Shown here one piece after another: positions 4,041 through 34,817 of a stretch of 39,483 nt of DNA. The translations under genes were made by a program, and so were the position numbers. Below the pieces are notes generated by a model. That model was given only the letters and a program-made list of their open reading frames with translations, made no database searches and was not told the DNA's origin. The first letter of the stretch is position 1; each line of letters begins with the position of its first letter. The stretch is from Elusimicrobiaceae bacterium (GTDB lineage: Bacteria > Elusimicrobiota > Elusimicrobia > Elusimicrobiales > Elusimicrobiaceae): assembly GCA_045601125.1 (NCBI GenBank), contig JAZRZE010000087.1, forward strand, positions 1-39,483. The letters are read 5' to 3'.

Positions 4041-5201
4041 ATGAAAAATATGAAAAATAAAGCCTTCACGCTAGTAGAGTTATTAGTAGTTGTTCTAATA
4101 CTTGGTATTTTAACTGCGATTGCCCTTCCAAATTATTTATTGTCAGTAGAAAAAGGCAGAGCGGTAGAAGCTCAAAATAACCTTAGTTCAATAGCTAAAG
4201 CAGAACAACTAATAAAACTAAGTAATGGGTCTTATACTTCACAGATAGATTCTCTCCATATATCGCTAAATGATGTTAATGGGGAAAAAGTTATTGGTGA
4301 TCAATTTAATACTAAAGATTTTCACTTTACAGTATATGGATCACAAGAGGGGGCTGCAACAGCTCAACGCATACATGTATCAGAAGATAAACAATATACA
4401 TTAGCTATTGATTATATGACAGGTAAGATTTTTTGTCGTCCTGTAGATAATAGAGTTTGTCGAGCTTTGAATCTTGAAGAAGGACCAGCTTATGGGTCAG
4501 AAAATATTTCTTGGCAATCATGTAATGGCAATTACGGTCGATTTGAGTATATGTTTTGGGCTGATTGCCTAATGTATCAATCTGGTGGGAAGACTTATCG
4601 TAAATACTGTGATGAAGAGTATGATTACTGTGTATTTGCTACAGAAAATGAAGATGGTTCTTATGAAACAGAAGAGTTATTTTGTAGAGGAGATTTAAAT
4701 GAAGATGGTACTTGCGATAATATTGATTTCAGACGCAAAGAATCAACGAATGGACCGTACAGAAATAGTTTGGAGGCGTATAGCGATGGAACAGGCTCTG
4801 TATACGAGTTTTATTGCAAAGATCATGTATGCCATACAACCGCGGCTAAAAATTGTGAAACTGATTCTCAAGGAGAATGTGTAGAATATACATATCTAGA
4901 TGAATTTGTGGTTGATGAAAATGGTAAAGAATTAGCTCAGAAGAATTGTCAAGAAATTAATTCCGATGGAACTTGTGCTAAATATCATATTTGTGATCCG
5001 CATAATTCAAGCAATGCATGTGAACAATATAGAGATTCCTGCCCGGAAACCCCTACGGGAACTTGTTGCCTTTCATTTAGACACTATTTAAGGGATGGAA
5101 CTATCGTTTATCATAATACAAAAGCAGAAGCTTTATCAGCATGTCAGGCCTTATATGGTAATACATGTTCTTATTGGTGGTGTGGATATTCAGGTCGTTA
5201 A
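4041..5201 (+). CDS. Prepilin-type N-terminal domain protein (type IV pilin / pseudopilin-like) with a long Cys-rich C-terminal extension
   Basis: 386 aa. The N-terminus MKNMKNKA|FTLVELLVVVLILGILTAIALPNY is a class III (prepilin) signal with Glu at +5, followed by a pilin alpha-1 helix. The C-terminal ~240 aa carry most of the 22 Cys, with recurring DGTC/GxC motifs. AAAGGAG lies before the ATG. Confidence 0.85.
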   Translation: MKNMKNKAFTLVELLVVVLILGILTAIALPNYLLSVEKGRAVEAQNNLSSIAKAEQLIKLSNGSYTSQIDSLHISLNDVNGEKVIGDQFNTKDFHFTVYGSQEGAATAQRIHVSEDKQYTLAIDYMTGKIFCRPVDNRVCRALNLEEGPAYGSENISWQSCNGNYGRFEYMFWADCLMYQSGGKTYRKYCDEEYDYCVFATENEDGSYETEELFCRGDLNEDGTCDNIDFRRKESTNGPYRNSLEAYSDGTGSVYEFYCKDHVCHTTAAKNCETDSQGECVEYTYLDEFVVDENGKELAQKNCQEINSDGTCAKYHICDPHNSSNACEQYRDSCPETPTGTCCLSFRHYLRDGTIVYHNTKAEALSACQALYGNTCSYWWCGYSGR

Positions 5202-12775: not shown

Positions 12776-12806
12776 AAAATAAAACTCCTTATCTTCCAAA
12801 ATAAAG

Positions 12807-13150
12807 TGGAGGCGGCGGGATTCGCACCCGCGTCCAAACAACCTTACAACTTGCTTACTACAGGTTTAGCTTCGGTATTGTAGTAAAGCTGCTTGCCCGA
12901 AGCCGCTGCCGCTTTACTTGTTTGCTTTATCTTAAGCAAAATTAGGCCAAACTAACCTTTTTTGCAGCAGACGGATTATTGACCGAGTGCTTTTGTATCC
13001 CGTCAATACAAAAGCTTCGGGTTTAGGCGGTAGCCCAAACGTTGTTGTTGTAGTTGTTGCCAACTATTGTTGTGACCCTATTTTAAGCGGCCTGGTCAAC
13101 CGCTACCTGCAAGCAAGCCTCAGAGTTATCTGTCAAAACTGGTCGCCCCC
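12807..13150 (-). ncRNA. ssrA: tmRNA (ssrA)
   Basis: Minus-strand 5' end GGGGGCGACCAGTTTTGACAG. The 3' end GGACGCGGGTGCGAATCCCGCCGCCTCCA forms a tRNA-Ala-like acceptor stem (GGGGGCG/CGCCTCC, with a G3:U70 pair) and a T-arm. The internal segment AATAGTT|GGC AAC AAC TAC AAC AAC AAC GTT TGG GCT ACC GCC TAA resembles the E. coli resume context AAUAGUC|GCA. Length is about 344 nt. Confidence 0.88.
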
Positions 13151-20004: not shown

Positions 20005-20904
20005 ATGGACGAAAAACTTTCATCAACAGCCGTTATAAGAATAAATCACGGCGAACAAAATAAAGCGCAGTATGATTTGCCGCAAAGTTATGGTGCAACG
20101 GAAAGTTATCTGTTGCCCAAAGACCCAAATTGGATGTTCTTATTTTGGGATATCGTGAAGGAAACTTATGAATACATAAAAGATACTTATGGCCAAGATA
20201 TTTTTGAAAGAGCAAAAAGCATTATCCGCGTTTACGATATTACAAATACAGAAAATTTTGACGGCACTAATGCAAACAGTTTTTTTGATATTGATGTCGT
20301 GCTTGATGCAAGAAGTTGGTATATTAATGCAATGAGCGCAAAAAGATATATTTGCGATTTAGGGTTAATTACCCCCGAAGGTAGATTTATTTTAATTACG
20401 CGCAGTAATGCAACCACCTTGCCGCCGGGCAGAGTTTCAAATGTAATAGACGAAAAGTGGATGATGGTTGAAGGTGATTATCAAAAACTTTTAAAAATGT
20501 CCGGTCAGGATATGTTTGACAGACAGGGCGGCGCAAGCGAAAAACTTCAGCATTTCTTTACCCACAAGTGGAAAATGTTTGAATTTGACACAAACTCTTT
20601 GCCTTCTTCCCACGTATCTTCTTGGAGTTCCGCTGCTTTAGCAAGACCCCAAGCGCAGGAAGAAACCGACGAAGATATTTGGCTTAAAGCAGATTGCGAA
20701 CTTATTGTCTATGGTCAAGCAAGCAAAAATGCCAAAGTTATGCTCGGTAATGTACCTTTAAAATTAAACGAAGACGGCACTTTTTCTTTAAGATATTCTC
20801 TGCAAGACGGGCAGGTTATTATCCCCATCAGAGCAGAGCATAAAACAAAATCCGAAAAGAAACGCGCCATCACTATTAAAGCCCAAAGACAAAAGGAGGC
20901 ATAA
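20005..20904 (+). CDS. DUF4912-like protein (usual partner of GH57 enzymes)
   Basis: 299 aa. The N-terminal YLLPKDPNWMFLFWDI...IRVYDIT pattern and the position directly upstream of a GH57 gene match what I recall of DUF4912 proteins. The function is unknown. Confidence 0.6.
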   Translation: MDEKLSSTAVIRINHGEQNKAQYDLPQSYGATESYLLPKDPNWMFLFWDIVKETYEYIKDTYGQDIFERAKSIIRVYDITNTENFDGTNANSFFDIDVVLDARSWYINAMSAKRYICDLGLITPEGRFILITRSNATTLPPGRVSNVIDEKWMMVEGDYQKLLKMSGQDMFDRQGGASEKLQHFFTHKWKMFEFDTNSLPSSHVSSWSSAALARPQAQEETDEDIWLKADCELIVYGQASKNAKVMLGNVPLKLNEDGTFSLRYSLQDGQVIIPIRAEHKTKSEKKRAITIKAQRQKEA

Positions 20905-20909
20905 CTTTT

Positions 20910-22499
20910 ATGGAAGAAAAAGGCTATTTATCCCTAGTTTTACACGCCCATTTGCCCTTTATCAGACACCCCGAATACCCCGATTTTCTTGAAGAAGATT
21001 GGTTCTTTGAGGCTATGGTTGAAACCTATTTACCTCTGCTTAATGTTTATGAAAATTTGACAAGAGAAGGGGTTGATTTTAGAATAACAATGTCCTTAAC
21101 ACCGCCTTTGTGCGCGATGATGAGTGATGAGTTATTAATTTCCCGCTTTAGAAATTATTTAAACCAAAGAATTGAGTTAAGCGCAAAAGAAATTGAGCGC
21201 ACCAAAAATACGGAATTTGCCGAAGTCGCTCAAATGTATAATACCAAGTTTTTGCGCTACCGCGAACTTTTTGAGAATTATTATCATGGCAGAATTTTGG
21301 AAGGTTTTAAAAAATTCCAAGATATGGGTAAACTTGAAATTATTACCTGCTGCGCAACACACGGTTATTTGCCTTTGCAGGTTCATAGGGAAAGTGTGCG
21401 CGCACAAATTAAAATTGCCGTTGAAGATTATAAACGCCATTTCGGCAGAGGGCCAAGAGGTATTTGGCTTGCCGAGTGCGCCTATAACCCGGGTGATGAT
21501 AAATTTTTACAGGAAGAAGGAATTAGATTTTTCTTTATGGAATCACACGGCGTAATGCACGCTGTTCCGCGCCCGAAATATGGTATTTACGCTCCTGTTT
21601 ATACACCTAACGGCGTTGCGGCTTTTGCGCGTGATATGGAATCTGCCCAGCAGGTTTGGAGCGCAGAAAGCGGCTATCCCGGTGACCCTAATTACAGAGA
21701 GTTCTACCGCGATCTCGGGTATGACCTTGATTATGAATATATAAAACCTTATTTACATAGTGACGGAGTCAGAAGAAATATCGGTATGAAATACCATAAA
21801 ATTACGGGTAAAGTTTCTTTAAACCAAAAACAACCTTACTACCCAAGCCATGCGCGCGAAGTTGCAGCCAGCCACGCGGGTAATTTTATGTTCAACCGCC
21901 AAAAACAAATTGAATATCTTGCAAGTGTCATTACCGATAGAAAACCTTTAGTAGTTTCTATGTATGATGCCGAGTTATACGGACACTGGTGGTATGAAGG
22001 TATAGAATTTTTAGAATATCTTTTTAAGAAAGTTTATTATGACCAAAAAGATATTAAACTTATTACTCCTATGGAATATTTGCAAAAATATCCCGTTAAC
22101 CAAGTGGCGCAACCTTCAATGTCCTCTTGGGGCGATAAGGGTTATCATGATGTTTGGTTAAACAGCGGTAATGATTGGATTTACAGACACCTTATTAAAG
22201 CTGCTCAAAGAATGATTGAAATGGCAAATAAATTTCCTTCCGCAGAAGGCGTTTTAAGAAGAGCCCTAAACCAAGCCGCAAGAGAACTTGTTTTAATGCA
22301 ATCTTCCGACTGGGCGTTTTTAATGACGGTCGGCACGGCAAAGGAATATTCCACCAAACGCACTAAAGACCATATTCAGCGTTTTATTGCCCTTTATGAA
22401 ATGATTATGGGTAATAGAATTGATGAGGGCTATGTCTACGATTTAGAGCAGAGAGATAATATCTTCCCTCAAATTAATTACGAGGTTTACAGAAGTTAA
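20910..22499 (+). CDS. GH57-family 1,4-alpha-glucan branching enzyme (DUF1957-containing)
   Basis: 529 aa. GYLSLVLHAHLPFIRHPE N-terminus, GIWLAECAY and YDAELYGHWWYEG are GH57 branching-enzyme-type motifs. Confidence 0.85.
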   Translation: MEEKGYLSLVLHAHLPFIRHPEYPDFLEEDWFFEAMVETYLPLLNVYENLTREGVDFRITMSLTPPLCAMMSDELLISRFRNYLNQRIELSAKEIERTKNTEFAEVAQMYNTKFLRYRELFENYYHGRILEGFKKFQDMGKLEIITCCATHGYLPLQVHRESVRAQIKIAVEDYKRHFGRGPRGIWLAECAYNPGDDKFLQEEGIRFFFMESHGVMHAVPRPKYGIYAPVYTPNGVAAFARDMESAQQVWSAESGYPGDPNYREFYRDLGYDLDYEYIKPYLHSDGVRRNIGMKYHKITGKVSLNQKQPYYPSHAREVAASHAGNFMFNRQKQIEYLASVITDRKPLVVSMYDAELYGHWWYEGIEFLEYLFKKVYYDQKDIKLITPMEYLQKYPVNQVAQPSMSSWGDKGYHDVWLNSGNDWIYRHLIKAAQRMIEMANKFPSAEGVLRRALNQAARELVLMQSSDWAFLMTVGTAKEYSTKRTKDHIQRFIALYEMIMGNRIDEGYVYDLEQRDNIFPQINYEVYRS

Positions 22500-22501
22500 T
22501 T

Positions 22502-23566
22502 ATGCAAAAATCAGCTGCTTATTTTGAAGATTTGCTTGATCAAAATAAACCCGCTCAAGTTTTAAAAGAACTTGGCAAAGTTAAAACAAAAGATGCCCAA
22601 ATTCTTTTTGTGCTTGCAGAAGCGCAAAGAATGTTAGGCAATTTTGAAGAGGCCATAGTTATATATGAGCAGGCCTTAAAAAACATTTCAAAATCGGCGG
22701 TGGAAGATAAAATTGATTTGCTTTTGGCTCTTGCTAAATGCCAGCGCACTTTAGGCAAAGCAGCAAGTGCTTATAAAAGCGCAAGTCTTGCCGAAAAACT
22801 TGCCCAAAAAGAAGAACTTGAAGATTTTGCCGTCTTAGCACTGCAAGAACGTGCGCTTGCTTTAAGAGCGCAAGGTAAATTGCAAGATTCTAAAGTTTTA
22901 TTAAATACTACTTTGAATTATTATCAGGAACAAGGCGAAATTGCAGGCCAAAGTTTTATTTATTGGGCGCTTGGCGGTATCAGCCGTCTTGAAGGTAATT
23001 TCGCGCAGGGTATTGCTGAGTTTAAAAAGGCAATAACTCTTGCCAAGCGCGCAAAAGATAATATAGCAGTTGCTTATGCAGTTTGCGGGCTTGCCGGTAT
23101 CAGCAGAATTGCCGGTAATATAAAAGAGTGCGTAAAAAATTATCAACTAGCCGCAAAACTTTTTAAAAACACCGATGATATCTTTGGCAAGGCCTACACA
23201 AATTGCGGGCTTGCAAACGGTCTTAGGCAACTTGGCGAATATAAAAAAGCAATGAGCCATTATATCGTTGCAGATAAATTATATTCTTCTATCAATGATA
23301 CGGTGGACCTTGGTTTTGTTAAATGGGGCAAAGCCGATATTTTAAAACATCAAGGTAATTTAAAAGCCTCTTTACAAACTTTACTTGAAGCAAAAAAACT
23401 TTTCGGCGCGAGTGATGAAATACGCGGTCAATTGCTTACGGAAATAAGTCTTGCGCAAATTTATTATTTACAAGGGCAAAAAGAGCAGGCAGATAAGACC
23501 TATGATAAAGCCGTTGCCCGTGCTAGAAAAGAGGGCTTACACACCTATTTAGAGAGTCTTACTTAA
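22502..23566 (+). CDS. Tetratricopeptide-repeat (TPR) protein, cytoplasmic
   Basis: 354 aa with no signal peptide. The A/L/Y/G-spaced 34-40-aa repeat pattern recurs (e.g. GNFEEAIVIYEQALK, GNFAQGIAEFKKAITLAK, GEYKKAMSHYIVADKL). Its start abuts the GH57 stop. Confidence 0.7.
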   Translation: MQKSAAYFEDLLDQNKPAQVLKELGKVKTKDAQILFVLAEAQRMLGNFEEAIVIYEQALKNISKSAVEDKIDLLLALAKCQRTLGKAASAYKSASLAEKLAQKEELEDFAVLALQERALALRAQGKLQDSKVLLNTTLNYYQEQGEIAGQSFIYWALGGISRLEGNFAQGIAEFKKAITLAKRAKDNIAVAYAVCGLAGISRIAGNIKECVKNYQLAAKLFKNTDDIFGKAYTNCGLANGLRQLGEYKKAMSHYIVADKLYSSINDTVDLGFVKWGKADILKHQGNLKASLQTLLEAKKLFGASDEIRGQLLTEISLAQIYYLQGQKEQADKTYDKAVARARKEGLHTYLESLT

Positions 23567-23628: not shown

Positions 23629-23657
23629 TTGACAAATCTAAAAATAGGAAGTATACT
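23629..23657 (+). promoter_or_regulatory. Near-consensus sigma70-type promoter of the five-gene cluster
   Basis: TTGACA (23629-23634), a 17-nt spacer, then TATACT (23652-23657). This implies a leader of roughly 145 nt before the ATG at 23811. Confidence 0.6.
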
Positions 23658-23810: not shown

Positions 23811-24932
23811 ATGGCAGAAGAAAAACAAAAAAGTTTTGGAATAATTCTTAAAGATTCCAAAACCAAAAAACAAAAAGAAGAAAGGAAATTATATACTATA
23901 GTTTCCTGTTGCGTGTCAGTAATTTTTTTAATTACTATTTTTGTTCCGTTTTTAACTAATGGGGAAGAAAAATCTTCCGGTAAGGCTTACAAGAATATAG
24001 CCTTTGACCTTGCTGATTTAGAAGTAGACGACGAAGCCGAAAGAACTTTGCTTGAAATGAATAGATATAAAGATATTCCCCAGCAAAATCTTTCCGGTTC
24101 ATTATTTACCAAAAAACAAAAAGAAGAAAGACAGCAGGTTGATAAAGTAAAAGGTGTGCCTCCCGCTGCAGATAAAGAATATTTACAGGCACGCAAGACA
24201 AAAAAGAAAAAACAAGTAAAAGGTGTTAAAAGACCTGCTACGACTTATACTCAAAGAAACAGCACCAAGACTTCAACCGGTAATATGTCAAAAAGCGGGA
24301 TGGTTTCGGTAAGCGGTGGTTCAAGCGGTGTTAGCGGTTCTATTTGGACAAGCCCAGATAAAGCCGGACAAAACGGTGGTAAAAATGCTAAAAACGGTAA
24401 TATCGGTTCTTACGGTTCACAACAACTTGTTGCTTCTGCAAACCCGAAAGGAAGAATATCCAGTTTAACCCGTGCTGTTCAAGAAAGCCAAAGAGCTGCC
24501 GATAGTAATAACTCAGATGTCGCAAGGCAGGCAGTAGTGGATGCGTTTACGGATAATAATATTGAAGCAGAAGACGGTGAACTTGAAGGAGAGGTAGAAG
24601 ATTTAGCGGAAAAATTTAATCCTGAAGAACTTAAAAAACTTGGTAATGATAAAGACTTACTTGACTTTAAAAATGACCTTGACGATGCTAAAGACGATGC
24701 TGTTGCCAATTCTGACCCTTGTGCGGAAATGAAAAATAAAATGTCCTTTCAGTGTTTCTGGGGACCGGCTTTGATGGATTTAGTTAAGGCCGTCGGAATA
24801 GCAGCTATTAACTATGGTTTTAAGAGTATAGGCAGTGGTAGTGGAAACTCCACGTCTACTAGTCTAGGTGATGGTTCAAATGGGTGGGCAGGTTTAGGTG
24901 ATGGCGAAACTTTACCTGACAACGTTATATAA
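23811..24932 (+). CDS. Hypothetical signal-anchored low-complexity protein (P1)
   Basis: The ATG at 23811 follows AAAGGGG; the track's TTG at 23793 lies inside that RBS. Basic N-terminus, one TM helix (LYTIVSCCVSVIFLITIFVPFL), K/S/G/N-rich and acidic stretches, and a C-terminal CAEMKNKMSFQC plus a hydrophobic segment. No family recognised. Confidence 0.7.
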   Translation: MAEEKQKSFGIILKDSKTKKQKEERKLYTIVSCCVSVIFLITIFVPFLTNGEEKSSGKAYKNIAFDLADLEVDDEAERTLLEMNRYKDIPQQNLSGSLFTKKQKEERQQVDKVKGVPPAADKEYLQARKTKKKKQVKGVKRPATTYTQRNSTKTSTGNMSKSGMVSVSGGSSGVSGSIWTSPDKAGQNGGKNAKNGNIGSYGSQQLVASANPKGRISSLTRAVQESQRAADSNNSDVARQAVVDAFTDNNIEAEDGELEGEVEDLAEKFNPEELKKLGNDKDLLDFKNDLDDAKDDAVANSDPCAEMKNKMSFQCFWGPALMDLVKAVGIAAINYGFKSIGSGSGNSTSTSLGDGSNGWAGLGDGETLPDNVI

Positions 24933-24951
24933 AGATTTGGAGGAAAATAAA

Positions 24952-26448
24952 ATGAAGATGAGAGCAATACTAAATAATATCGGCGCTGTTTCAAAACAAA
25001 TGATTGTTGGCGGCGCTATTACTGTAGCAACCGTAGCTGTCGGCATCGGTTTAATAAACAATTTCAGTAGCAAAGGCAATGTTGAACACGGTTTTGCTTC
25101 TAACGCTATTGAACGCAGCGGTTATTCTTATAACTCTGCTTACGAAGGCGCAAGCGCGGAAGATATTCTTTCCGCCCGTGATTTCGCACAAGGGCAAGGC
25201 GATGGCAAAGTTGCTATTAGGGGAGCAGAAAATCTTGCTTTTAACAAAAAAAGTTCAGCCGGTGCTAATGGGGCAGGCACTTCTGTTAAAGGGGAAGCAG
25301 GCGAAGTCGGAACTGTTCAGGATAATACCCAAGATTATGGTGACGGCCAAATTGAAGGTATGGGAACTTCAAGAACCGTTGCGGTAGATGTTACTAAAGA
25401 AGATGCCGCTGCCTTAAAAGCAAAAAGAGATGCCAAAATTGCTCAAGGTAAAGATATTGCACAACAAACAAAAGCTGCTTTCAAAACAAGTAAAATGGCT
25501 GATTCCTCCACTTTTGACAGTATGGCGCAAGGCTCTACCTCTATGTCTTATGGCACCGGCAGTGGTGCTATGGGCGCAACGGGAACGGCTGATTCTTCCA
25601 AAATTGATTTAGCAAAGGCAACAGGCCTTGCAAATGTTGACTTAAAGGGTGCTAAAGACGGTCGTTTAAGCGCTATGGGTAGCAAAAATACCGAAACAAA
25701 AGATTCGGGCGTTGGCCGCAACTCCTATGGCCAGCATGCCGAACTTCAAGGTGATTTGGTCCGCGCAAGACAATATTCCGCTTCAGGTAAAAAAGCAGTT
25801 ACTGTTTCCGATATGGAAAAAGGTGCTGCCGATGCAGCAGCGGCCTTTGACGGCAGTAAAGATTCTCCCGTTGCTCAATTAGAAGGGGAAAATTTACAAG
25901 CCGCCGCTCTTAGCAATTTGAAAAATAATGCAGGCGAAGGAATGGATTTTGACCTTAGCGGTCTTCAAGATAAGTTTGACGAAGTTGATGAAACCATGCA
26001 GAAATATGATGACATTCTCGGTAAGATTAAAGATTGTATGATGGCTATGATTTTAGCTGCTTCAATTGCTTCACTTGCTGTAGGTATATTTTCTAAAATT
26101 GAACCGTGGGGAGCTGCGGCGGCTTTGGCAGCAGCGGCAATTGGAACAGCAGCAATACTTGCTTCTCAAATCGCTGCTACGGTATTTTTAAGTCAACTTG
26201 CAGATTTAGCAAATACTTCTGGTATAGAAACCATAAAACCTAGCGGTTGGGATTGGGCATCCCCGTGGGTTATTGGAGGACTTCTTGCCGGTTGTATTTG
26301 GGCTTCTTGGGCTTTAGCAGGTTTTGGTCCCGGTCAACTTTCAGACAAAATTTTCGAATTACTTAGTGGAATAGTAAATGGTGTAGCAACCGGTGGGGTG
26401 ACTACCTCTCTTGGCCATTTCTTTGGTAAAATAGGTAAGAAGAAATAG
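24952..26448 (+). CDS. Hypothetical membrane protein (P2): N-terminal anchor, G/A/S/T/D-rich region, C-terminal Ala/Gly-rich TM bundle
   Basis: The ATG at 24952 follows GGAGGA; the track start at 24898 overlaps P1. N-terminal TM helix MIVGGAITVATVAVGIGLI. The C-terminal ~130 aa hold 3-4 hydrophobic helices (MMAMILAASIASLAVGIF, AAAALAAAAIGTAAILASQIAATVFL, WVIGGLLAGCIWASWALAGF). Confidence 0.7.
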   Translation: MKMRAILNNIGAVSKQMIVGGAITVATVAVGIGLINNFSSKGNVEHGFASNAIERSGYSYNSAYEGASAEDILSARDFAQGQGDGKVAIRGAENLAFNKKSSAGANGAGTSVKGEAGEVGTVQDNTQDYGDGQIEGMGTSRTVAVDVTKEDAAALKAKRDAKIAQGKDIAQQTKAAFKTSKMADSSTFDSMAQGSTSMSYGTGSGAMGATGTADSSKIDLAKATGLANVDLKGAKDGRLSAMGSKNTETKDSGVGRNSYGQHAELQGDLVRARQYSASGKKAVTVSDMEKGAADAAAAFDGSKDSPVAQLEGENLQAAALSNLKNNAGEGMDFDLSGLQDKFDEVDETMQKYDDILGKIKDCMMAMILAASIASLAVGIFSKIEPWGAAAALAAAAIGTAAILASQIAATVFLSQLADLANTSGIETIKPSGWDWASPWVIGGLLAGCIWASWALAGFGPGQLSDKIFELLSGIVNGVATGGVTTSLGHFFGKIGKKK

Positions 26449-26470
26449 TTAATACTTAGGGGAGGATAAT

Positions 26471-27121
26471 ATGAGTGGAGAACTTGCACAAAATTTGACT
26501 CCGAAACGCTTTAATATAATTTGGGTGTTATTTATCTTATTTTATCTGTTTTCTTGTACTGTCGCAGGGATGTACTTTCTTAATTTGGAAAATAGGATAA
26601 AAAACGAAGCCCCTCGTATTAAAGCAAAACAAATTGAAAAGATTATTAGGGAAAATGCTTTGGCAAGAAAAACTGCCGATCCTAAAACTATGGAAAGTAT
26701 ATATAGTCATAGTGGCGGTATAAACCCCGGTTTTAAGAAAATGGTTTCTAATGTAACGGGTCCGCAGGAAATGCCTAAACAAAGAGCATACGAAGAACAA
26801 CTTGCTAAGTATGAAGCAGAAATGGCCGAGCGTGAAAGAATCAGACTTGAAGAAAAGCGCCGTGACGAAGAAATTCAGGCACAAGAACGCGCTTTAATGG
26901 AAGAAGAAAGACTTGAACGCTTGAAAGAAGAACAAGCCATGAAACAACTTGAGGCAAGCCAAGCAGCGCAGACAACGGGCGGCTTAAGTCCCGCAAAGAC
27001 TTTTACCGCTCCCAAGACTCAAAAACCCCGGCCGAAGACTCAACAAAAGACTCAACAAAAAACGGTAATCGGCACTTTGAAAACAAGTAAAATGGGGGAA
27101 AGCAGTTTTCAGAGTTATTAA
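26471..27121 (+). CDS. Hypothetical signal-anchored coiled-coil protein (P3)
   Basis: GGGGAGG RBS. TM helix FNIIWVLFILFYLFSCTVAGMYFL, an E/R/K-rich helical segment (YEAEMAERERIRLEEKRRDEEIQAQERALMEEERLERLKEEQ), a QKTQQKTQQKT repeat, and a C-terminal LKTSKMGESSFQSY. Confidence 0.7.
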   Translation: MSGELAQNLTPKRFNIIWVLFILFYLFSCTVAGMYFLNLENRIKNEAPRIKAKQIEKIIRENALARKTADPKTMESIYSHSGGINPGFKKMVSNVTGPQEMPKQRAYEEQLAKYEAEMAERERIRLEEKRRDEEIQAQERALMEEERLERLKEEQAMKQLEASQAAQTTGGLSPAKTFTAPKTQKPRPKTQQKTQQKTVIGTLKTSKMGESSFQSY

Positions 27122-27133
27122 AGGAAAAAAGTT

Positions 27134-28780
27134 ATGAAAAAGGCAAAAGTCGTAAACCAAGCAAATAAACAAGGCCGCTCCTTAACCGGTAAAAGAGCCG
27201 TATTGCTTACTTTGGGTGCGGTTGCGGCTTTAGGCACGGTTGCTGTGGTAGTTCCTACTTCCAATATACCGGGTTTTAAGTATATTGCCCAATTTATTGG
27301 TATTGAGGCGGATGCAACTCGCAACTTAACAATGTCGGATTTTGCCTCTTATGCTGTAGGGATGCGTGGTAATAAAATTTCATCTTTACGCGATGCTAAC
27401 TCCCTTACCTATAGTGTAAACGGCGGTGGTAGCAGTGGACTTTCGCCTTTTTCAACTTTTGCAAATGATAGACTTGCCCAGGCCTATGCCGAAAACAGCA
27501 AAACAGTCATAGAGATAGAAAAATCTTTCGGTGGCAAAATAACACCTTTTGATAAAACTAAAATTGATAGAAATGTAACAACCTATGACCCTGCCTTGCT
27601 TGCAAAAGGTTTTGACCCTTCAAAGATATCTGCTTCGGCCCAAGCGGCGCAAAGCGGTGCTATGGAAGCACTTGCCGCGGCAGCCGGTAAACAGGCAGAG
27701 CAATTTGGCAAACCGGTAAAGCAAACAAATTTAACACAGATTGCAAGTCTTGTAGGTGTAAAAGACAGTAATGTGTCTAATATTGTAGGAACGGGCAATA
27801 TTATGTCTTTTGCAAACAAAGATGAAATGCTTTACGACCGTATTAAATTACAGGCAAAGGCCTTAATGGGAACAAGCGTTTTCGGCTCGGTCAACCCTAA
27901 TTTTACCCGCACCGATACTAGAATCGGGCGTCCTGTTTACGGTATGTTTAAGGAACTTGGTAATTCCTACTTCTTCAGCCGTTATGCAAAGGGGGCAAAA
28001 TATTCCACCGCGGCAGAAGATATAGCCATAGCGGCTTTTGACGGTGGTTCTCCACAAGATCAGAGTATCGTAACACAGGAAGAAACCGCCCACCCCGGCG
28101 CAAGTGGTAATCCGCAGGAAAGTCTTAACCAAAGTGCTCAAGCCATAAATGCTTGCCAGCAGATGAGAGATGCTTATAATCAAACTCTTTCTTCTCAATA
28201 CAGTATGATTCAGGAATACAAAAATATAATGAAAGGTCTTTCCAGTGCCTTTAACAATACGGAAACACCGGGCAGCTGCTATGGTAAAGGCAACAATAAA
28301 AATGTAAAGGAAGCAAGGGACCAATGGAATACTTATATTGACTCCATAAGAGATGCTTGCGATACTATAAGAGATATTAAAAACCAATTTGCCAATCAAT
28401 GCGGTATAACAATACAGCAACCGGTAAAAACCTGCTCTCAAATGGCGCGAGCGCTTAAACTTGCCCACGTTAAAAAAGCACATATGATTATAAAATGCAG
28501 AAGAATCAGTCTTTTCGGTTCAACAGGAGAGGTAACTATAAGTTCTTCTAAATTAAGAAGATGGAATAGAAAATTCAATCATTATATAAATAACGGTTAT
28601 ACCTCCGAAGAAGCAGAAGTCGCTGCCGATAATGATGTTGATATAGATATGGACGATATTTCAGGGGTAGATTATAAATGTAATAACAAAAGAAATTGTT
28701 GGAACTATTTTGATAATATGATAGAAGAAGGTTTTGCTTTTGGTAATATAACCGGTATAAATAATTTGCCTACTAATTAA
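27134..28780 (+). CDS. Hypothetical signal-anchored protein (P4) with a Cys-containing C-terminal module
   Basis: 548 aa. Basic N-terminus plus a TM helix (AVLLTLGAVAALGTVAVVVP), an A/Q/S-rich middle, and a C-terminal third with 9 Cys and an acidic patch (DNDVDIDMDD). No family recognised. Confidence 0.7.
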   Translation: MKKAKVVNQANKQGRSLTGKRAVLLTLGAVAALGTVAVVVPTSNIPGFKYIAQFIGIEADATRNLTMSDFASYAVGMRGNKISSLRDANSLTYSVNGGGSSGLSPFSTFANDRLAQAYAENSKTVIEIEKSFGGKITPFDKTKIDRNVTTYDPALLAKGFDPSKISASAQAAQSGAMEALAAAAGKQAEQFGKPVKQTNLTQIASLVGVKDSNVSNIVGTGNIMSFANKDEMLYDRIKLQAKALMGTSVFGSVNPNFTRTDTRIGRPVYGMFKELGNSYFFSRYAKGAKYSTAAEDIAIAAFDGGSPQDQSIVTQEETAHPGASGNPQESLNQSAQAINACQQMRDAYNQTLSSQYSMIQEYKNIMKGLSSAFNNTETPGSCYGKGNNKNVKEARDQWNTYIDSIRDACDTIRDIKNQFANQCGITIQQPVKTCSQMARALKLAHVKKAHMIIKCRRISLFGSTGEVTISSSKLRRWNRKFNHYINNGYTSEEAEVAADNDVDIDMDDISGVDYKCNNKRNCWNYFDNMIEEGFAFGNITGINNLPTN

Positions 28781-28955
28781 TATGCTAATATATAGGTAAA
28801 GAGATTTGACAAAATAACGGGGCTTAGGACTTAAATAAAAAGCCCCCATAAAAAGAAGTAAAAGCAGTAGTAAAAAAGTTAAGCAGTAAACATATAAGAT
28901 AGAGGGTATAGAGCATTTTATGTGTTTTATATCCGTAAACTAAAAGGAGGATTGT

Positions 28956-31900
28956 ATGAAAAAGGATAGCTTCACGTTTAGTGATAAGTTAAAGAAAAGT
29001 AAAACTTTACCTTTATCTAAACGTATTCCCTCGCGTGTTGGCGGGGAAGTGAAAGCAAAACGCACCCTCTTTGAGCGTGCGCAAAGGGACTTGCCCTTTA
29101 TAATCGTGGCAGCACTAGCGTTGCTATTGTTGCCATTCCTCAGCAGAGAATCGGGAGATATTGATACCCCGAAACTCGTCTGGGGCGAAGGAGATACTTA
29201 TGAAGAAGATTTCAATTCAAAACCTAAATCAGCCGAAGAGGAAATTGCTTTATCTAGCTTCCGCAATCCTCTTGATTTGATTATCAGACGCGGTGAAAAA
29301 GATTCTTCCAGAGATACTATTGACCCCTATGCTTCAGAATCAGATTCTTCCGCTTCCGAGGCAGAATCTTCTTCTGATAAATACGGTTCCAGCCGTTCAA
29401 GTTATGCAAGTGAAGATTATACTTCTTCTCCCTCAACTTCCAAATATGGCAAAACCGTAAAGAGATCTGTGCGCAATTCCGTTAAGCGTGTGCCTACCGC
29501 TATTGGCTCTTTAACTACTAAAGGTATGGTTTCCGCAAACGGTGGCGGTTCACCGAATCATAGTTTGGCTTTCGGCAGCCGTTCAAAAGATGCCGCACCC
29601 AGAGTTCAAGGCCCCGGTGTCAGACCGGTTGCTTTGCAACCTTTAACCGCAGCGGGCAAAGGGCGCGACTTAACCGGCAATGATGCCCTTTATGCAGAAG
29701 CGGCACGCTCTATCGGCGCAATGAACAGACCGGGCGCAAAACAGGCCCTTATGGATGCTCAACTTGCCGATCTTGACGGTAAACCTTTAGGCGATACCAA
29801 AAGCGCTGAAGCCAAAGGCGAACCCGGCAGACCCGGCGCCGGCGGCGGCCCCAGCAATAATTGGACCCATAACAACCAAAAACCTTGGTGGTGGGATATG
29901 ATGAAAGAACGCTCCCAAAGAAGATGGGAACTTTGGCATTATAACTGGGAAAAAATGGCCTCTGATAGTTTAATTGCTTTAACAAGAGGTCTTGCTTCCT
30001 GCTTAATCACCGGTTCCAATAATTTTGAAGTTAGCAAATTCTTGGGTGCCGACGGTGGTGATGCTGATGGTAAATGTGTTGATGATAACGGAAATGAAGT
30101 TTATATCCGCCGCAGACAATACATCAACGAATTAAAAGTTTCCGGCGGTAAAGATAGCGCTGCTTCTTCTGTTTCTGCTTTACCTTGGGAAGAAGCCTGT
30201 GTTAAATATGGTCACGGAAAAGTAGAAATGAAACCTTCCGGTTCCCACAAGAGTATGTTGGAAACCCGTTTGAATTGCTTGGGTATCGGGCTTAGTGATA
30301 TTAAAGATAAATATGTAACCAAAAGGGCATTTACTTGCCAAGGTACCTATTATGACCCTATGTATGTTAACATAGACATCACAAGAAACGGCAAAGACAA
30401 ACCCGGAAAATACAAAAAGGTCGGTTACTATGTAATGGGTGAAAAAGACGGTTGTACAGGAGATGTTGCTTTATTCTTGAGCAAGGCAAAATCCGGCAAA
30501 AATAATATAACCGGTGTAGATAGATCCAAGGTTTCTAAAATTGTTATTTACAAAGCCAATGATAAAACTACTACCCATTATCCCGAAGGTAATGTTAAAA
30601 CAACAGATAGAAACCTTGAAGATTACAAATATAAACAAGGTGACCGTGAAGGCGAATACTTTGATGATGAAGAAATTTATTGGGAATCCGGTGACTATGA
30701 TAAGGCCTTTAATGTCGCTTACAAGAGAATACAAAACGGAGAATGTTTGACTGAAAAAGAACTCCAAAAAATCTTGAAAGCCGGCAAATGGCGTGATGCT
30801 AATACACTTGGCGTTTGTGATGATATTGCCTTTAATAATTCTTATTATAAACTTGTTAAGATAAATCCTTTAGATAGCACTCAAGATGATTATCAAAGCA
30901 CAGGCAATACTCCTAATGATTACACACAGGCATTCAAAGATATGACGGATTGTCAATATAAGGATGTCTTTATTGAGAAGGTTCCCAGCAATCACGTTTT
31001 TGCTACAACAATTAAGAACCCCGGCAAACGCACAATTGCTTTTGTCTTGGAATATGTTCAAGGTAATGCCTATAGTGATGATAAGGCGCCCAGTTATTTC
31101 GATAATGAAAAATCAACCCTATCTGAAAGAACAGGTTATAGAGTTGTTAGAAAAATTGATTATACAAATTATCCTCATTTAGTTTCTAACAATGCTGACG
31201 GCTCTCAAACCTTTATAGGCGAAGTTCAAGTGGGCACAAGCAGTACCCTTAAAAATGATAACACTGAGCGCGACGAAAAAGTTAAAGCAGAACCCGGCTT
31301 TGGTAAAGTAATTTGGGTTACCACTGACGATATGACAACCGAAGGCGTAACGGAAGGAACTATCGTTAGAGAACCGCAAGCAAACTTACTCTTCCCTACT
31401 CCAAGGAAATTATCCGCAGTTTGTAATTACAGATGGGGTTGCAAGGGTGGCAACGTTTGCCCCGGAACTCCTAACCCAAATGAAGAGCAAATTCCAACCG
31501 AAGATTATTGCTTTGTCGCGGATGGAAACAACCCCTCAAACACAAGTCTTCGCAAGTATTATAAATTCACTTACTTCCAAGGGCATCCTGTCAAGAGCGA
31601 TAATAACGCCATACTCCCCGGAGATTTGCCGGAGAATTTTGATGAAGACCACGCGATTGAATGTGAGCCGATATGTAAGTGTAAAGATGACAAATATCGC
31701 CTTATAATTAAGAAATATTGTGAAGATATTACCGGAAAAGAAATAGATATTACCGATTGTGAGGAATGTAAAGAAAACGAAGGCGACGGACTTTGCGAGT
31801 TAGAAGGTGAAGTCTACAAGAGCATTAAAGTAGTTGAAAACGGAAAAGAATACTACTTCCGCTTGACTAATACACCTGTTGAAGGTAGGGCAACAGTTCC

Positions 31901-32969
31901 TTGCACACCTATCTGCGCAGATAAAGCAAAGGCCTTAGGTATCTTGCAGACAACAGGCAAAGACTCTAATATCCCGCTTAACGAAACAACTCTTACTACA
32001 GAGGAAAAAGTTAATAAGCAAGGTATTGGAATTCCTAGCGAAGTCTGTCCTTATTGTTCAGGCAAGTGCTATATAGGTAATGAAGTCTATCCTTGCACTT
32101 CCTTTGAAGGCAATGATGGAACAACCTATTACATCCGCACCTCTGCAACACCTATTGCCGGCAGAACAGAGTTCCCTTGTACGCCTATCTGCGCAAAGAA
32201 AGCAGAGGATTTAGGTATTAGTATCTTTAAGACGAAAGAAAGCGATCCTGTGACACCCATTGATCCTGTCTTAACAGAAGATGCAAATAAGATTGCTCCT
32301 GTTAAACCCGGTGCTGAAAAACTCTGTCCGTTCTGCAACCCTGATCCAGAATCTCCAGTAGCACCTAATCCGGAGCCTAGAGATTTAGCCACACTTGCCT
32401 CTAGGACTATTAACTTTGCAAATGGTTGCTATAAAAAGTATTACATCGATAGTAATTATGACTTCAACGAGTTTAAAGAGGCTGTTATTGATAATGCTGT
32501 TGCACAAGGTGTAAATACCTTTATAATTGAAGGCCACGCTTCAGGCCGTGTGGCTAAGTGCCCTGAAGGCAATTGTAATGAATTGCTCGCATACGATAGA
32601 GCGATTTACTTATACAATCAAATGGCTCCGTTGTTGAATGGCGTATATAATGTTGAACTTATAGATGAGACTGATAAATCTAAGTTCGGCACCGGTAAAT
32701 ATCCGACACCCGGAACCAATGGCTTGCCTAATTATGAGGATTGCGAGAATCACTGGCCTATAGAGAGAAATACCTTAATGTCTATTTCTTATGATAGTTC
32801 CAAGCCTACAATTAAGATTACACTTAGAGGTCTTGGTATCAGTGAATCTGTAACAAGTAAACAGAGTTCTGGAGAAACAAAAGAAGAAGCAAAGATAAAT
32901 ATTAGACGAGGTGAAGACGACAGAAGTGCAATTATCTATCCTAATCAAGAAATAGTTGATAGTGATTAG
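28956..32969 (+). CDS. Giant (1337 aa) signal-anchored Cys-rich protein (P5) with internal tandem repeat and OmpA/MotB-like C-terminal domain
   Basis: AAAGGAGG RBS. TM helix LPFIIVAALALLLLPFL at about residues 46-62, a Ser/Asp/Glu-rich tract, and a Trp-rich segment (KPWWWDMMKERSQRRWELWHYNWEKM). Many Cys are in paired CxxC/CxC contexts. The C-terminus FIIEGHASGRV...NELLAYDRAIYLYNQM fits the OmpA_C pattern (GHxD/S...N..LS..RA). Confidence 0.8.
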   Translation: MKKDSFTFSDKLKKSKTLPLSKRIPSRVGGEVKAKRTLFERAQRDLPFIIVAALALLLLPFLSRESGDIDTPKLVWGEGDTYEEDFNSKPKSAEEEIALSSFRNPLDLIIRRGEKDSSRDTIDPYASESDSSASEAESSSDKYGSSRSSYASEDYTSSPSTSKYGKTVKRSVRNSVKRVPTAIGSLTTKGMVSANGGGSPNHSLAFGSRSKDAAPRVQGPGVRPVALQPLTAAGKGRDLTGNDALYAEAARSIGAMNRPGAKQALMDAQLADLDGKPLGDTKSAEAKGEPGRPGAGGGPSNNWTHNNQKPWWWDMMKERSQRRWELWHYNWEKMASDSLIALTRGLASCLITGSNNFEVSKFLGADGGDADGKCVDDNGNEVYIRRRQYINELKVSGGKDSAASSVSALPWEEACVKYGHGKVEMKPSGSHKSMLETRLNCLGIGLSDIKDKYVTKRAFTCQGTYYDPMYVNIDITRNGKDKPGKYKKVGYYVMGEKDGCTGDVALFLSKAKSGKNNITGVDRSKVSKIVIYKANDKTTTHYPEGNVKTTDRNLEDYKYKQGDREGEYFDDEEIYWESGDYDKAFNVAYKRIQNGECLTEKELQKILKAGKWRDANTLGVCDDIAFNNSYYKLVKINPLDSTQDDYQSTGNTPNDYTQAFKDMTDCQYKDVFIEKVPSNHVFATTIKNPGKRTIAFVLEYVQGNAYSDDKAPSYFDNEKSTLSERTGYRVVRKIDYTNYPHLVSNNADGSQTFIGEVQVGTSSTLKNDNTERDEKVKAEPGFGKVIWVTTDDMTTEGVTEGTIVREPQANLLFPTPRKLSAVCNYRWGCKGGNVCPGTPNPNEEQIPTEDYCFVADGNNPSNTSLRKYYKFTYFQGHPVKSDNNAILPGDLPENFDEDHAIECEPICKCKDDKYRLIIKKYCEDITGKEIDITDCEECKENEGDGLCELEGEVYKSIKVVENGKEYYFRLTNTPVEGRATVPCTPICADKAKALGILQTTGKDSNIPLNETTLTTEEKVNKQGIGIPSEVCPYCSGKCYIGNEVYPCTSFEGNDGTTYYIRTSATPIAGRTEFPCTPICAKKAEDLGISIFKTKESDPVTPIDPVLTEDANKIAPVKPGAEKLCPFCNPDPESPVAPNPEPRDLATLASRTINFANGCYKKYYIDSNYDFNEFKEAVIDNAVAQGVNTFIIEGHASGRVAKCPEGNCNELLAYDRAIYLYNQMAPLLNGVYNVELIDETDKSKFGTGKYPTPGTNGLPNYEDCENHWPIERNTLMSISYDSSKPTIKITLRGLGISESVTSKQSSGETKEEAKINIRRGEDDRSAIIYPNQEIVDSD
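31794..32342 (+). repeat. Intragenic tandem duplication (two units of about 90 aa) inside P5
   Basis: Unit 1 (31794-32063): CELEGEVYKS..GKEYYFRLTNTPVEGRATVPCTPICADKAKALGI...CPYCSG. Unit 2 (32067-32342): CYIGNEVYPC..GTTYYIRTSATPIAGRTEFPCTPICAKKAEDLGI...CPFCNP. A degenerate third unit may precede them (KYYKFTYFQGHPV...ECEPICKC). Confidence 0.8.
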
Positions 32970-32982
32970 AAATATAAAACAG

Positions 32983-33017
32983 ACACCCCGTTCTAAAAAA
33001 GAACGGGGTGTTTTTTG
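32983..33017 (+). terminator. Strong intrinsic terminator ending the five-gene cluster
   Basis: ACACCCCGTTC-taaaaaa-GAACGGGGTGT followed by TTTTTTG, 14 nt after the P5 stop. Confidence 0.9.
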
Positions 33018-33050: not shown

Positions 33051-34817
33051 ATGAGGAAATATGTTTTTTTACTTTCTTTAATTTTACTTAATTGCTCGCT
33101 TTTAACATCAGCCGCTTTGCCAAAGTTTCTTGGCGGCAGCGGGCTTGGCATAAATGCGCAAAAAGCTAATCTTGAAAATAATTACTACCCAACCTATTGG
33201 GAAAATCTTATGAAAGAGCAATCTTCCCTAAATCTAAAACAGGGTTTTTATGACCTAGCCAGACACGATTATAAAACCGCCGAAATGACATTTGCTAAAG
33301 CAACAATAAAAGATCCCACAAAGCCCTATCCCCATATATTTTTGGGTATTTCTCTCTATTGGCAAGGTAAACTTGAAGCAGCTATGGCAGAATATAATCA
33401 AGCCCTAACCCTTGACCTCGAAAATGCTCAAGCCCATCAACTTTTAGGTATCGCTTATGCTTGGAAAGGCGAAATTAAACCTGCTTTGGAGCATTTTCAA
33501 ATCGCCTATAAAAAAGAACCAGACCGCGCTGATGTTAATATGAATTTGGGTTCAACTTACGGCGCCTTAAATGATTATGAAAATGCTCTTTTCCATTTTC
33601 GCCGTGCCGTTGAACTTGAACCAAGACATCCTTTGTATCTTTATCAGTTAGGTTCACTTTACGAGTTTTTAGGCAGAGATTCCCTTGCTAAAGATTCTTT
33701 TAGAAAAGCAATAAAACTTTATCCCTATTACGAAGAAGCTATTTTGGCCCTTGCCGTTTTATCTGAAAAACTAGGCGAAAATGCCCGCGCAAAAGGTTGT
33801 TATAATAAGGCCCTTTCCCTAAAACCCGGCGATAGTATTGCCCGTTTGCGCTTGGTTAATTTGCTAATAAAACAAGAGAATTTTGATGATGCTGTTGACA
33901 TAATTCAGCGCGCTTTTTTAATTGCGCCTGTTTCAAACGAAGGCCTTGCTTTATCCATTTCCTACGGCGGTAAAACTGCGCAAGCAAGCGCGCAAAATAA
34001 TACGCAAGAAGATAGCGCGCAAGATACTTTAGATAGTCAACTTGCCGGGTTTAAAAAGCGCTTAGCAAAAATTTCCGCAGAAGAAGAAATCTCTATCCAA
34101 GTGCAAACCGAAATTACACCCAAAAACTTTAATCCGCTTGTAGAAAAAACTAATACGGAAACCCCTCAGCCGACTTCCCTTTTTGATAAAAAGTTTGAGC
34201 AAAATCTTTCTAATACTTTCAGCCGTTCCTTTACCCTTGCGCCTGCCACCGCCGAAGGCCGTAAAGAACAACTTGATAAACTTTTTGAAGGTTTAAATAA
34301 TGTCTTAAAAGAAGGTTCAAAAGAAAATGATGTCAAAATGTTTGTGCAGGCCTCCGGCTTAAAAAAAGATGCCCCTAGTTTAACGGCGCAAAATACCGCT
34401 TACGGTCAAGCACAAGATTCTATCGGTGCAAAGGCAACTTATAATCCTTATAATGTCGGCAATGATATGGGCCTTTGGGTTATCGGCAAAACTTGGCTTA
34501 AATATGTGGAAGAAGTCCAAAACGATATAGAACAAAATACTTTAAAAGAACCTACCTTGCAGAATTATATTTTGTCGGGTTTTATGTATTTGACTCTCGG
34601 GCAAGGTAATCAGGCTTTTGATAGTTTCAAAAAAGCAAATATGTTAGTTGAAGATAATCAAACTTTAAGGGAAATTTGCCTTCTTGGTATGGGAACTTCT
34701 TTTGTGGTTCTCGGCGAGGAAGAAGAAGCCACGCAAATTTATAACGAGGTTCTTAAAATAAATCCCAATAATAAAATAGCGCAAAGTAATATAGAAATTT
34801 TAACTGCGGAGGAATGA
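33051..34817 (+). CDS. Secreted or lipoprotein-like TPR-repeat protein
   Basis: 588 aa. Signal peptide MRKYVFLLSLILLNCSLLTSAA. At least 6 clear TPR units lie in residues ~60-300 (e.g. AMAEYNQALTLDLENAQAHQLLGIAY, ALFHFRRAVELEPRHPLYLYQLGSLY), followed by a Q/S/E-rich linker and C-terminal TPR units. Confidence 0.75.
   Translation: MRKYVFLLSLILLNCSLLTSAALPKFLGGSGLGINAQKANLENNYYPTYWENLMKEQSSLNLKQGFYDLARHDYKTAEMTFAKATIKDPTKPYPHIFLGISLYWQGKLEAAMAEYNQALTLDLENAQAHQLLGIAYAWKGEIKPALEHFQIAYKKEPDRADVNMNLGSTYGALNDYENALFHFRRAVELEPRHPLYLYQLGSLYEFLGRDSLAKDSFRKAIKLYPYYEEAILALAVLSEKLGENARAKGCYNKALSLKPGDSIARLRLVNLLIKQENFDDAVDIIQRAFLIAPVSNEGLALSISYGGKTAQASAQNNTQEDSAQDTLDSQLAGFKKRLAKISAEEEISIQVQTEITPKNFNPLVEKTNTETPQPTSLFDKKFEQNLSNTFSRSFTLAPATAEGRKEQLDKLFEGLNNVLKEGSKENDVKMFVQASGLKKDAPSLTAQNTAYGQAQDSIGAKATYNPYNVGNDMGLWVIGKTWLKYVEEVQNDIEQNTLKEPTLQNYILSGFMYLTLGQGNQAFDSFKKANMLVEDNQTLREICLLGMGTSFVVLGEEEEATQIYNEVLKINPNNKIAQSNIEILTAEE

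Follow-up and report, generated by a model that had tools for sequence, protein, structure and literature searches.

Short segments shared by different proteins are a feature of several described systems. Short peptides docked by TPR domains are one such system. Type IV pilins and the TadE and TadF proteins are another, in which co-encoded, N-terminally anchored paralogues keep one short segment in common because they become parts of one assembly. The LPXTG, PEP-CTERM and GlyGly-CTERM signals are short signatures common to several envelope proteins of one genome; they lie at the C-terminus, ahead of a membrane helix and a basic tail, and are paired with a sortase-type enzyme. BASS and RHIM-like amyloid signalling motifs, which belong to the cytoplasm of filamentous bacteria, occur C-terminally in a Bell effector and N-terminally in the NLR-type protein (NB-ARC/NACHT) encoded by the adjacent gene, and the RHIM/PP/BASS3 group shares a central G-phi-Q-phi-G (bioRxiv 10.1101/2020.01.06.895854). 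The element considered here was found in a 39,483-nucleotide stretch of contig JAZRZE010000087.1 from an Elusimicrobiaceae bacterium (the window), where five genes on the same strand encode the proteins designated P1 to P5. An earlier note on this DNA had described one short peptide motif in all five proteins. In P1, P2, P3 and P5 the motif was supported by profile comparisons and cross-trained models and represents a real, conserved and lineage-restricted module, whereas the P4 copy failed every test.

Each of the five proteins begins with a basic stretch and then, by hydropathy, a single hydrophobic segment; the N-termini are therefore predicted to be cytoplasmic and the bulk of P1 to P5 periplasmic, and the motif lies 40–165 residues past the membrane segment. 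The nearest analogy in logic is with the type IV pilins and TadE/TadF proteins, and it is made concrete by the presence of two TadE-like genes directly upstream of P1 in 42 related loci (L015–L019 and L028–L085; ~7–8.5 kb upstream of P5). The segment itself differs, being G/S-rich and periplasmic by prediction rather than an N-terminal hydrophobic helix or a G/xxxxE site, and P1 to P5 matched neither PF07963 (N_methyl) nor PF07811 (TadE), which leaves them outside the pilin/TadE definition. The amyloid motifs are alike in being ~20–25 residues long, rich in G, S and Q with a few hydrophobic positions, and embedded in otherwise dissimilar proteins of adjacent genes; copies of the module in distant P1 proteins, which read TQ[IV]G, also recall the RHIM core. 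However, P1 to P5 lack NB-ARC, NACHT and Bell domains (Pfam), their motif is predicted to be periplasmic and is C-terminal only in P3, and the window copies (IGSL, IGTL, TGNM) do not conform to G-phi-Q-phi-G. With the LPXTG, PEP-CTERM and GlyGly-CTERM signals the module has in common only that several envelope proteins of one genome bear it, and a C-terminal sorting signal was excluded by the position of the motif and the lack of a following membrane helix.

When only the five window sequences were used, the five-way claim was marginal. With one 12-mer sought de novo in each protein, the score was 105, compared with 93.9 +/- 5.0 for shuffles made in 25-residue blocks, which keep local composition, and 3 of 60 shuffles reached 105. 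The best motif in this test was the G/S-rich GMVSxxGGGS, which in P2 and P3 fell at sites other than those of the earlier note; motif discovery against a composition background, a check which that note had proposed, thus gave a borderline answer on the window alone. As the single-sequence test was marginal, orthologue profiles were used instead, built from syntenic operons in eight loci (P4 identity 45–83%) and then from 79 further loci retrieved via P5 alignment. The P1 and P5 profiles matched each other over 115 columns (E 1.4e-5), and a non-circular comparison of 64 P1 with 70 P5 N-terminal sequences gave an alignment of 80 columns that starts at the motif (E 7.6e-7, probability 91.7%). Between P2 and P3 the top match consisted of exactly the 12 motif columns (E 0.003), and between P3 and P5 it was again the motif (E 0.056). 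The P4 site matched no other protein in the profile-profile comparisons.

Models trained on one protein and applied to the others gave a concordant picture. With a 21-column model trained on P5, the proportion of sequences above the 99th percentile of 5,069 background open reading frames (ORFs) was 100% for P3, 65% for P1, 25% for P2 and 1% for P4. A 34-column model of the module, iterated at E<0.01, gathered 78 P5, 44 P1 and 7 P2 proteins and none of the 5,069 background ORFs. The eight best non-P3 matches of a P3-trained model among 5,429 ORFs were all P2 orthologues, at the same position in the protein, and an iterated P1 profile pulled in 77 P5 proteins. A 96-column profile of the P1/P5 segment was also searched against 1.84 billion representative proteins (E<=0.001). 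It returned 123 matches, at residues ~140–300 in every case, and, fragments aside, the matched proteins had P5-like (~1,035–1,641 residues) or P1-like (~350–450 residues) lengths. In the databases searched, the segment is confined to this one family.

The five quoted peptide strings are all present and in frame, although the P1 string is in codon phase from 24264 and not from 24262. A 16-nucleotide string common to the P2 and P3 copies, AAAACAAGTAAAATGG, starts at 25483 as described; its second copy lies at 27080–27095, not 27078–27093, and these are its only two plus-strand sites in the window. Gene conversion was considered as the source of this identity and rejected, as P2 and P3 agreed at 15.0 of 21 nucleotides within genomes and at 14.6 between genomes; the identity is the result of shared residues and codon bias. 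The P4 copy was also rejected: among 67 distinct relatives of P4, only 14 have the element GLSPF, and in just one of these 14 did the best motif match lie at the proposed site. That the recurrence as a whole arose by chance from low-complexity composition is extremely improbable. The 3 shuffles in 60 that reached the five-way score favour this explanation, and the P4 copy, for which alone it stands, is indistinguishable from chance; for P1, P2, P3 and P5 it is rejected by the profile comparisons, the cross-trained models and the search of 1.84 billion proteins.

Across the family, the consensus of the module (~27–30 residues) is T-x-[IV]-[GN]-x-[LMF]-x2-[AG]-x-[ML]-x4-G-x-G-x4-6-[WFY]-G. The aligned module was seen in P1, in a second P2 paralogue and in P5 across 43 genomes, and examples from distant genomes are TPTQVGQLGSASMGRASGSGVSATWG (P1), PTQIASLGTASMTRASGSGINASYG (second P2 paralogue) and AATKINKLGTAGMARGNGGRLGERYG (P5). 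The window copies are diverged versions that read TAIGSL, TVIGTL and TSTGNM; at the far end, P1 finishes with IWT, P5 with AFG and P2 with SYG, and P3 stops after FQSY. A short core, (G)TLKTSKM, is common to P3 and P2. In 53 P5 sequences less than 80% identical to one another, T181 and R173 (the latter just upstream of the module span) show no variation, and at least 90% of the sequences agree at R178 and I183; much of the remaining P5 stalk varies, and overall identity across the P5 family is ~30–35%. In the closest clade, mean pairwise identity of the P3 copy is 0.78 against 0.37 and 0.26 in its flanks, and that of the P2 copy 0.64 against 0.56 and 0.45.

Common ancestry, which the earlier note had given as the alternative to a docking, sorting or processing signal, was upheld: P1 and P5 are homologous over 80–115 residues starting at the motif, and the alignments show that the two proteins inherited the module by duplication. 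The ~27-residue module is carried by the second P2 paralogue in most relatives; the window P2 holds a diverged copy, P3 the short core only, at its C-terminus, and P4 no module. The recurrence in P1, P2, P3 and P5 is thus explained chiefly by paralogy, through ancient duplication. It is nevertheless unlikely that the module is a relic of this ancestry with no function of its own, its similarity being due to slow divergence of paralogues or to G/S/T-rich composition. Besides the common descent demonstrated for P1 and P5, the marginal single-sequence test speaks for a relic, as does the finding that in the closest clade the motif columns of P1 and P5 are no better conserved than their flanks. 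However, unlike the surrounding stalk, the core positions vary little or not at all across the P5 family (conservation of at least 90%), P3 has retained only the core, at more than twice the identity of either flank, and composition alone is insufficient, as no background ORF matched the module.

In profiles of close orthologues, a second region, apart from the motif, links P2 and P4 (E 3e-4 over 98 columns; P4 side 27914–28210; pattern GR..G..LG...SR..K....A.AAFDG). Broad family profiles did not confirm this link (E 0.089), and it is therefore tentative. As a similar stretch, GR...A..DA(F/Q), is present in P1 and P5, paralogy may extend over the full length of the four large proteins. Of the two P2 paralogues found in other clades, BLASTP singled out neither as the counterpart of the window P2.

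Gene order was compared across 88 loci. The common order is histidine kinase, LuxR-type regulator, two TadE-like genes, P1, P2, a protein of ~90 residues, the second P2 paralogue, P4, P5, a secreted TPR protein and KsgA, and the cluster is kept in ~70 of the 88 with the secreted TPR protein downstream. It is found only in Elusimicrobiaceae; the related loci are labelled nearly all as Elusimicrobiaceae or Elusimicrobiales, with a few generic or other labels, and were assembled from rumen, gut and termite samples. The TadE-like genes, which in loci read further upstream are preceded by the histidine kinase and a LuxR-type response regulator, were identified by PF07811 in 16 of the 20 proteins scanned (best E 2e-5). 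In the window's clade (12–14 loci) there are no TadE-like genes at this position, which is occupied by a DUF4912-GH57-TPR unit (20005–23566 in the window, with gaps of 5 and 2 nucleotides); the unit is present in most loci of the clade, but not in L008, and in none of the other clades examined. Neither the window nor the related loci that were examined showed genes for a Tad ATPase, platform or secretin, and a search of the literature for Elusimicrobium pili yielded nothing relevant.

In the window's clade, P3 replaces both the ~90-residue protein and the second P2 paralogue. The ~90-residue protein of other clades comprises a membrane anchor and an E/R/Q-rich segment, and the E/R-rich segment of P3, read by eye, looks like a coiled coil. 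From their sequences, P3 looks like this protein with the motif core appended (compared loci: P3, 26471–27121; L036, 6341–6625; L017, 7739–8254), and, with the second P2 paralogue absent from the clade, it may be a fusion or a remnant. In P3-like proteins of clade B (171–186 residues, ending ...RVNKLRTSSL), the motif is still at the extreme C-terminus, as the variant (V/I)N(K/R)L.TS.

These arrangements bear on whether the module is a processing or sorting signal, to be recognised by a dedicated enzyme of the periplasm that would cut off or modify the C-terminal parts. The products of TadE-like genes are cut by prepilin peptidase, and the clusters of relatives adjoin such genes; a linear element that is conserved in several co-expressed proteins with a membrane anchor, within regions predicted to be disordered, would also suit processing. 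This explanation is nonetheless quite improbable. The motif is internal in P1, P2 and P5 but forms the last 21 residues of P3, where cleavage would free almost nothing; it has no following membrane helix and basic tail, and conserved homologous sequence runs on at both sides of it. Furthermore, the window ORFs that were scanned and the clusters of the loci for which gene order was listed showed no gene for a protease, sortase or exosortase. As a separate observation, the N-terminus of the P2 family (24952–25060 in the window; relatives in L028–L085) has the consensus MNIFxxLKxxSGK followed by a hydrophobic stretch, with a Gly that is 90% conserved. It resembles the TadE-like leader LRSRKGQATTEVVLLFP but is without Glu at +5, and could be a prepilin-peptidase-type signal.

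P5 offers a possible connection to the cell wall. Its predicted OmpA-like C-terminal domain was recognised through orthologues, PF00691 matching 5 of 13 orthologous P5 C-termini (best E 9.3e-5). The window copy falls below the model threshold but shows the signature GHAS...NELLAYDRA, the pattern sought being GH(T/A)(D/S)...N..LS..RA; more distant clades have a different C-terminus. A distinctly unlikely explanation is that the module binds a non-protein ligand, such as peptidoglycan or an outer-membrane lipid, or sets the length or stiffness of the stalk. Its fairly fixed distance past the anchor, within residues ~140–300 of all 123 database matches, would be in keeping with this, as would its richness in Gly, Ser and Ala, the aromatic residue and Gly at its end, and the OmpA-like, putatively peptidoglycan-binding domain of P5 orthologues. 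No likeness to peptidoglycan- or lipid-binding families was found in Pfam or NCBIfam, however, and in P3 the motif stands at the extreme C-terminus after the coiled-coil-like segment, a placement more fitting for a docking peptide at a protein end than for a spacer.

Two TPR proteins come into question as docking partners for the motif. The one that had been suggested earlier, encoded upstream of P1 at 22502–23566, is unlikely to have this role, as it lacks a hydrophobic signal peptide and would be separated by the membrane from motifs that are predicted to be periplasmic; its gene follows the GH57 gene after 2 nucleotides and it probably belongs to the DUF4912-GH57 unit. The TPR protein encoded downstream is the better candidate because it is secreted. 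Its relatives (59 ORFs) lie after P5 in most cluster-bearing loci. The locus is like the TPR-docked peptides in that a secreted TPR protein is a conserved downstream neighbour and the motif lies in sequence predicted to be unstructured. It is different in that the window TPR gene (from 33051) lies beyond a strong terminator, with a promoter-like site of its own, and in that some genomes keep the P5 module with no TPR gene nearby.

The explanation favoured here, with about even confidence, is that the module is a shared element for the assembly or docking of subunits into one envelope complex. It would sit in the predicted periplasmic stalk of paralogous, inner-membrane-anchored proteins and would be kept as the common element that joins these subunits in the cell envelope. 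It would probably work as an extended or hairpin segment that pairs with its counterparts on other subunits or with a single periplasmic partner common to them all, for which the TPR protein secreted from the downstream gene and the C-terminal domain of P4, which is folded, are candidates, and the OmpA-like end of P5 would tie the complex to peptidoglycan. In its favour are the reading of the five genes as one transcription unit, their common topology, the homology and core conservation of the module, its restriction to this family and the retained gene order. A more specific proposal, which is quite unlikely, is a hetero-oligomerisation zipper in the periplasm: at least four membrane-anchored subunits would each give a strand-turn-strand unit, with its aromatic-Gly end, to a shared beta-sheet or cross-beta core that would nucleate an undescribed machine spanning the envelope and peculiar to Elusimicrobiaceae, with P5 as its peptidoglycan anchor and with a link to TadE-like pseudopilins.

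Several observations weigh against assembly or docking as the role of the module. About 10 loci that have P5 but none of the other genes nor the TPR gene nearby still keep the module, and a partner encoded next door is therefore not required. P4 lacks the module yet is an equally conserved member of the cluster, and in the closest clade its segment, like those of P1 and P5, is conserved no better than the flanks. Two observations on the favourable side have limits of their own. The similarity of P1 and P5 modules is slightly higher within genomes (0.374) than between genomes (0.351; permutation p 0.006), which is compatible with a shared constraint, but the effect is weak and an excess so small could be produced by lineage-specific composition. 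AlphaFold2 gave no confident structure for the motif regions in isolation, with predicted local distance difference test (pLDDT) scores of 25–45; P4 residues 89–332 scored ~25–35, and P5 residues 177–246 scored below 50 when residues 1–430 were modelled. Such scores fit a segment that folds only with its partner, but they may just reflect shallow alignments (15–23 sequences) and are weak evidence for disorder.

The features of the window are collected in Table 1. P1 to P5 are separated by intergenic gaps of 12–175 nucleotides, with a promoter-like site upstream of P1 and a terminator-like hairpin after P5, and are therefore read as one transcription unit; the true starts are likely the ATG codons at 23811 (P1) and 24952 (P2). 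None of the five proteins matched a family in Pfam or NCBIfam. Homologues of P1 number 29, and the named one is from Elusimicrobiaceae. A search of PDB sequences with the P5 profile gave no match, and a Foldseek comparison of the P4 model with the PDB found no matching fold (best E 1.2).

Table 1. Coordinates of the operon, the module copies and associated features in the window.
Feature	Position	Strand	Description or basis
Promoter-like site, TTGACA-17-TATACT	23629..23657	+	5' of P1; 11 of 12 positions, consensus match only
P1	23811..24932	+	373 residues; N-terminus basic, single membrane-spanning segment, then a long part predicted to be periplasmic
P1 segment homologous to P5 (P1 ORF residues 154-240)	24252..24512	+	Profile-profile comparison, E 7.6e-7, probability 91.7%
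P1 module copy, TKTSTGNMSKSGMVSVSGGSSGVSGSIWT	24264..24350	+	In-frame string; profile comparisons
P2	24952..26448	+	Membrane anchor at N-terminus, periplasmic region, three more membrane segments at C-terminus
P2 module copy, QTKAAFKTSKMADSSTFDSMAQGSTSMSYG	25465..25554	+	P2 orthologues are the top 8 matches of the P3-trained model
P2 region homologous to P4 (GR..G...SR..K...AAFDG), tentative	25702..26040	+	Second module apart from the motif; profile-profile comparison, E 3e-4, 98 columns
P3	26471..27121	+	Membrane anchor, E/R-rich segment, motif at extreme C-terminus
P3 motif-core copy, QKTVIGTLKTSKMGESSFQSY	27056..27118	+	Cross-trained models; conservation above flanks
P4	27134..28780	+	Membrane anchor; 8 Cys; confident fold only in residues ~330-540
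P4 copy proposed by the earlier note, NKISSLRDANSLTYSVNGGGSSGLSPFSTF	27371..27460	+	Unsupported as a motif copy
P5	28956..32969	+	1337 residues; N-terminus and anchor, module-bearing stalk, Cys-rich middle, OmpA-like C-terminus
P5 module copy, KRVPTAIGSLTTKGMVSANGGGSPNHSLAFG	29484..29576	+	T181 invariant, R178 and I183 at least 90% conserved in 53 sequences
P5 OmpA-like C-terminal domain (GHAS...N..LAYDRA), predicted	32508..32969	+	PF00691 in orthologues
Terminator-like hairpin, strong	32981..33013	+	14-bp stem then T run, directly 3' of P5
Downstream TPR protein with N-terminal signal peptide	33051..34817	+	Conserved neighbour of P5; TPR family matches

Further features of P5 and of the window were also noted. 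The most conserved part of P5 is residues 1–65 (28956–29150), the predicted cytoplasmic N-terminus and anchor (MKKDSFTFSDKLKKSK...RDLPFIIVAALALLLLPFL), in which K3, S5–K11, R41, R44, D45, P47 and F48 are invariant in the 53 sequences less than 80% identical; this suggests a conserved cytoplasmic partner. P5 contains 34 Cys in total, and within it a Cys-rich unit (~31758–32240, residues ~935–1095) is duplicated internally (...YYFRLTNTPVEGRATVPCTPICADKAKALGI... and ...YYIRTSATPIAGRTEFPCTPICAKKAEDLGI...). An ORF of 206 residues on the minus strand at 27863–28483, antisense within P4, is probably spurious because P4 is conserved on the plus strand. Far from the operon, an ORF of 386 residues (4041–5201) has a prepilin-type N-terminal methylation motif (PF07963, E 1.6e-7) and is by this match a type IV pilin-like protein. 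The window is chromosomal, with tRNAs, transfer-messenger RNA (tmRNA) and housekeeping genes present. The tmRNA gene lies on the minus strand at 12804–13150 and encodes the tag peptide GNNYNNNVWATA; a tag that ends in ATA is unusual, LAA being common.

The finding is of an undescribed protein family and gene cluster, not of a new principle, and at present it touches no long-standing open question. It adds four or more new protein families, none with a model in Pfam or NCBIfam, which are linked to TadE-like pseudopilin genes. The envelope complex that they would form belongs to the Elusimicrobiota, a poorly studied diderm phylum known from the microbiomes of the rumen, the gut and termites. Should the module prove to be a shared element of assembly, this conserved and wholly uncharacterised complex could be probed simply, with a short peptide or a small number of point mutations.

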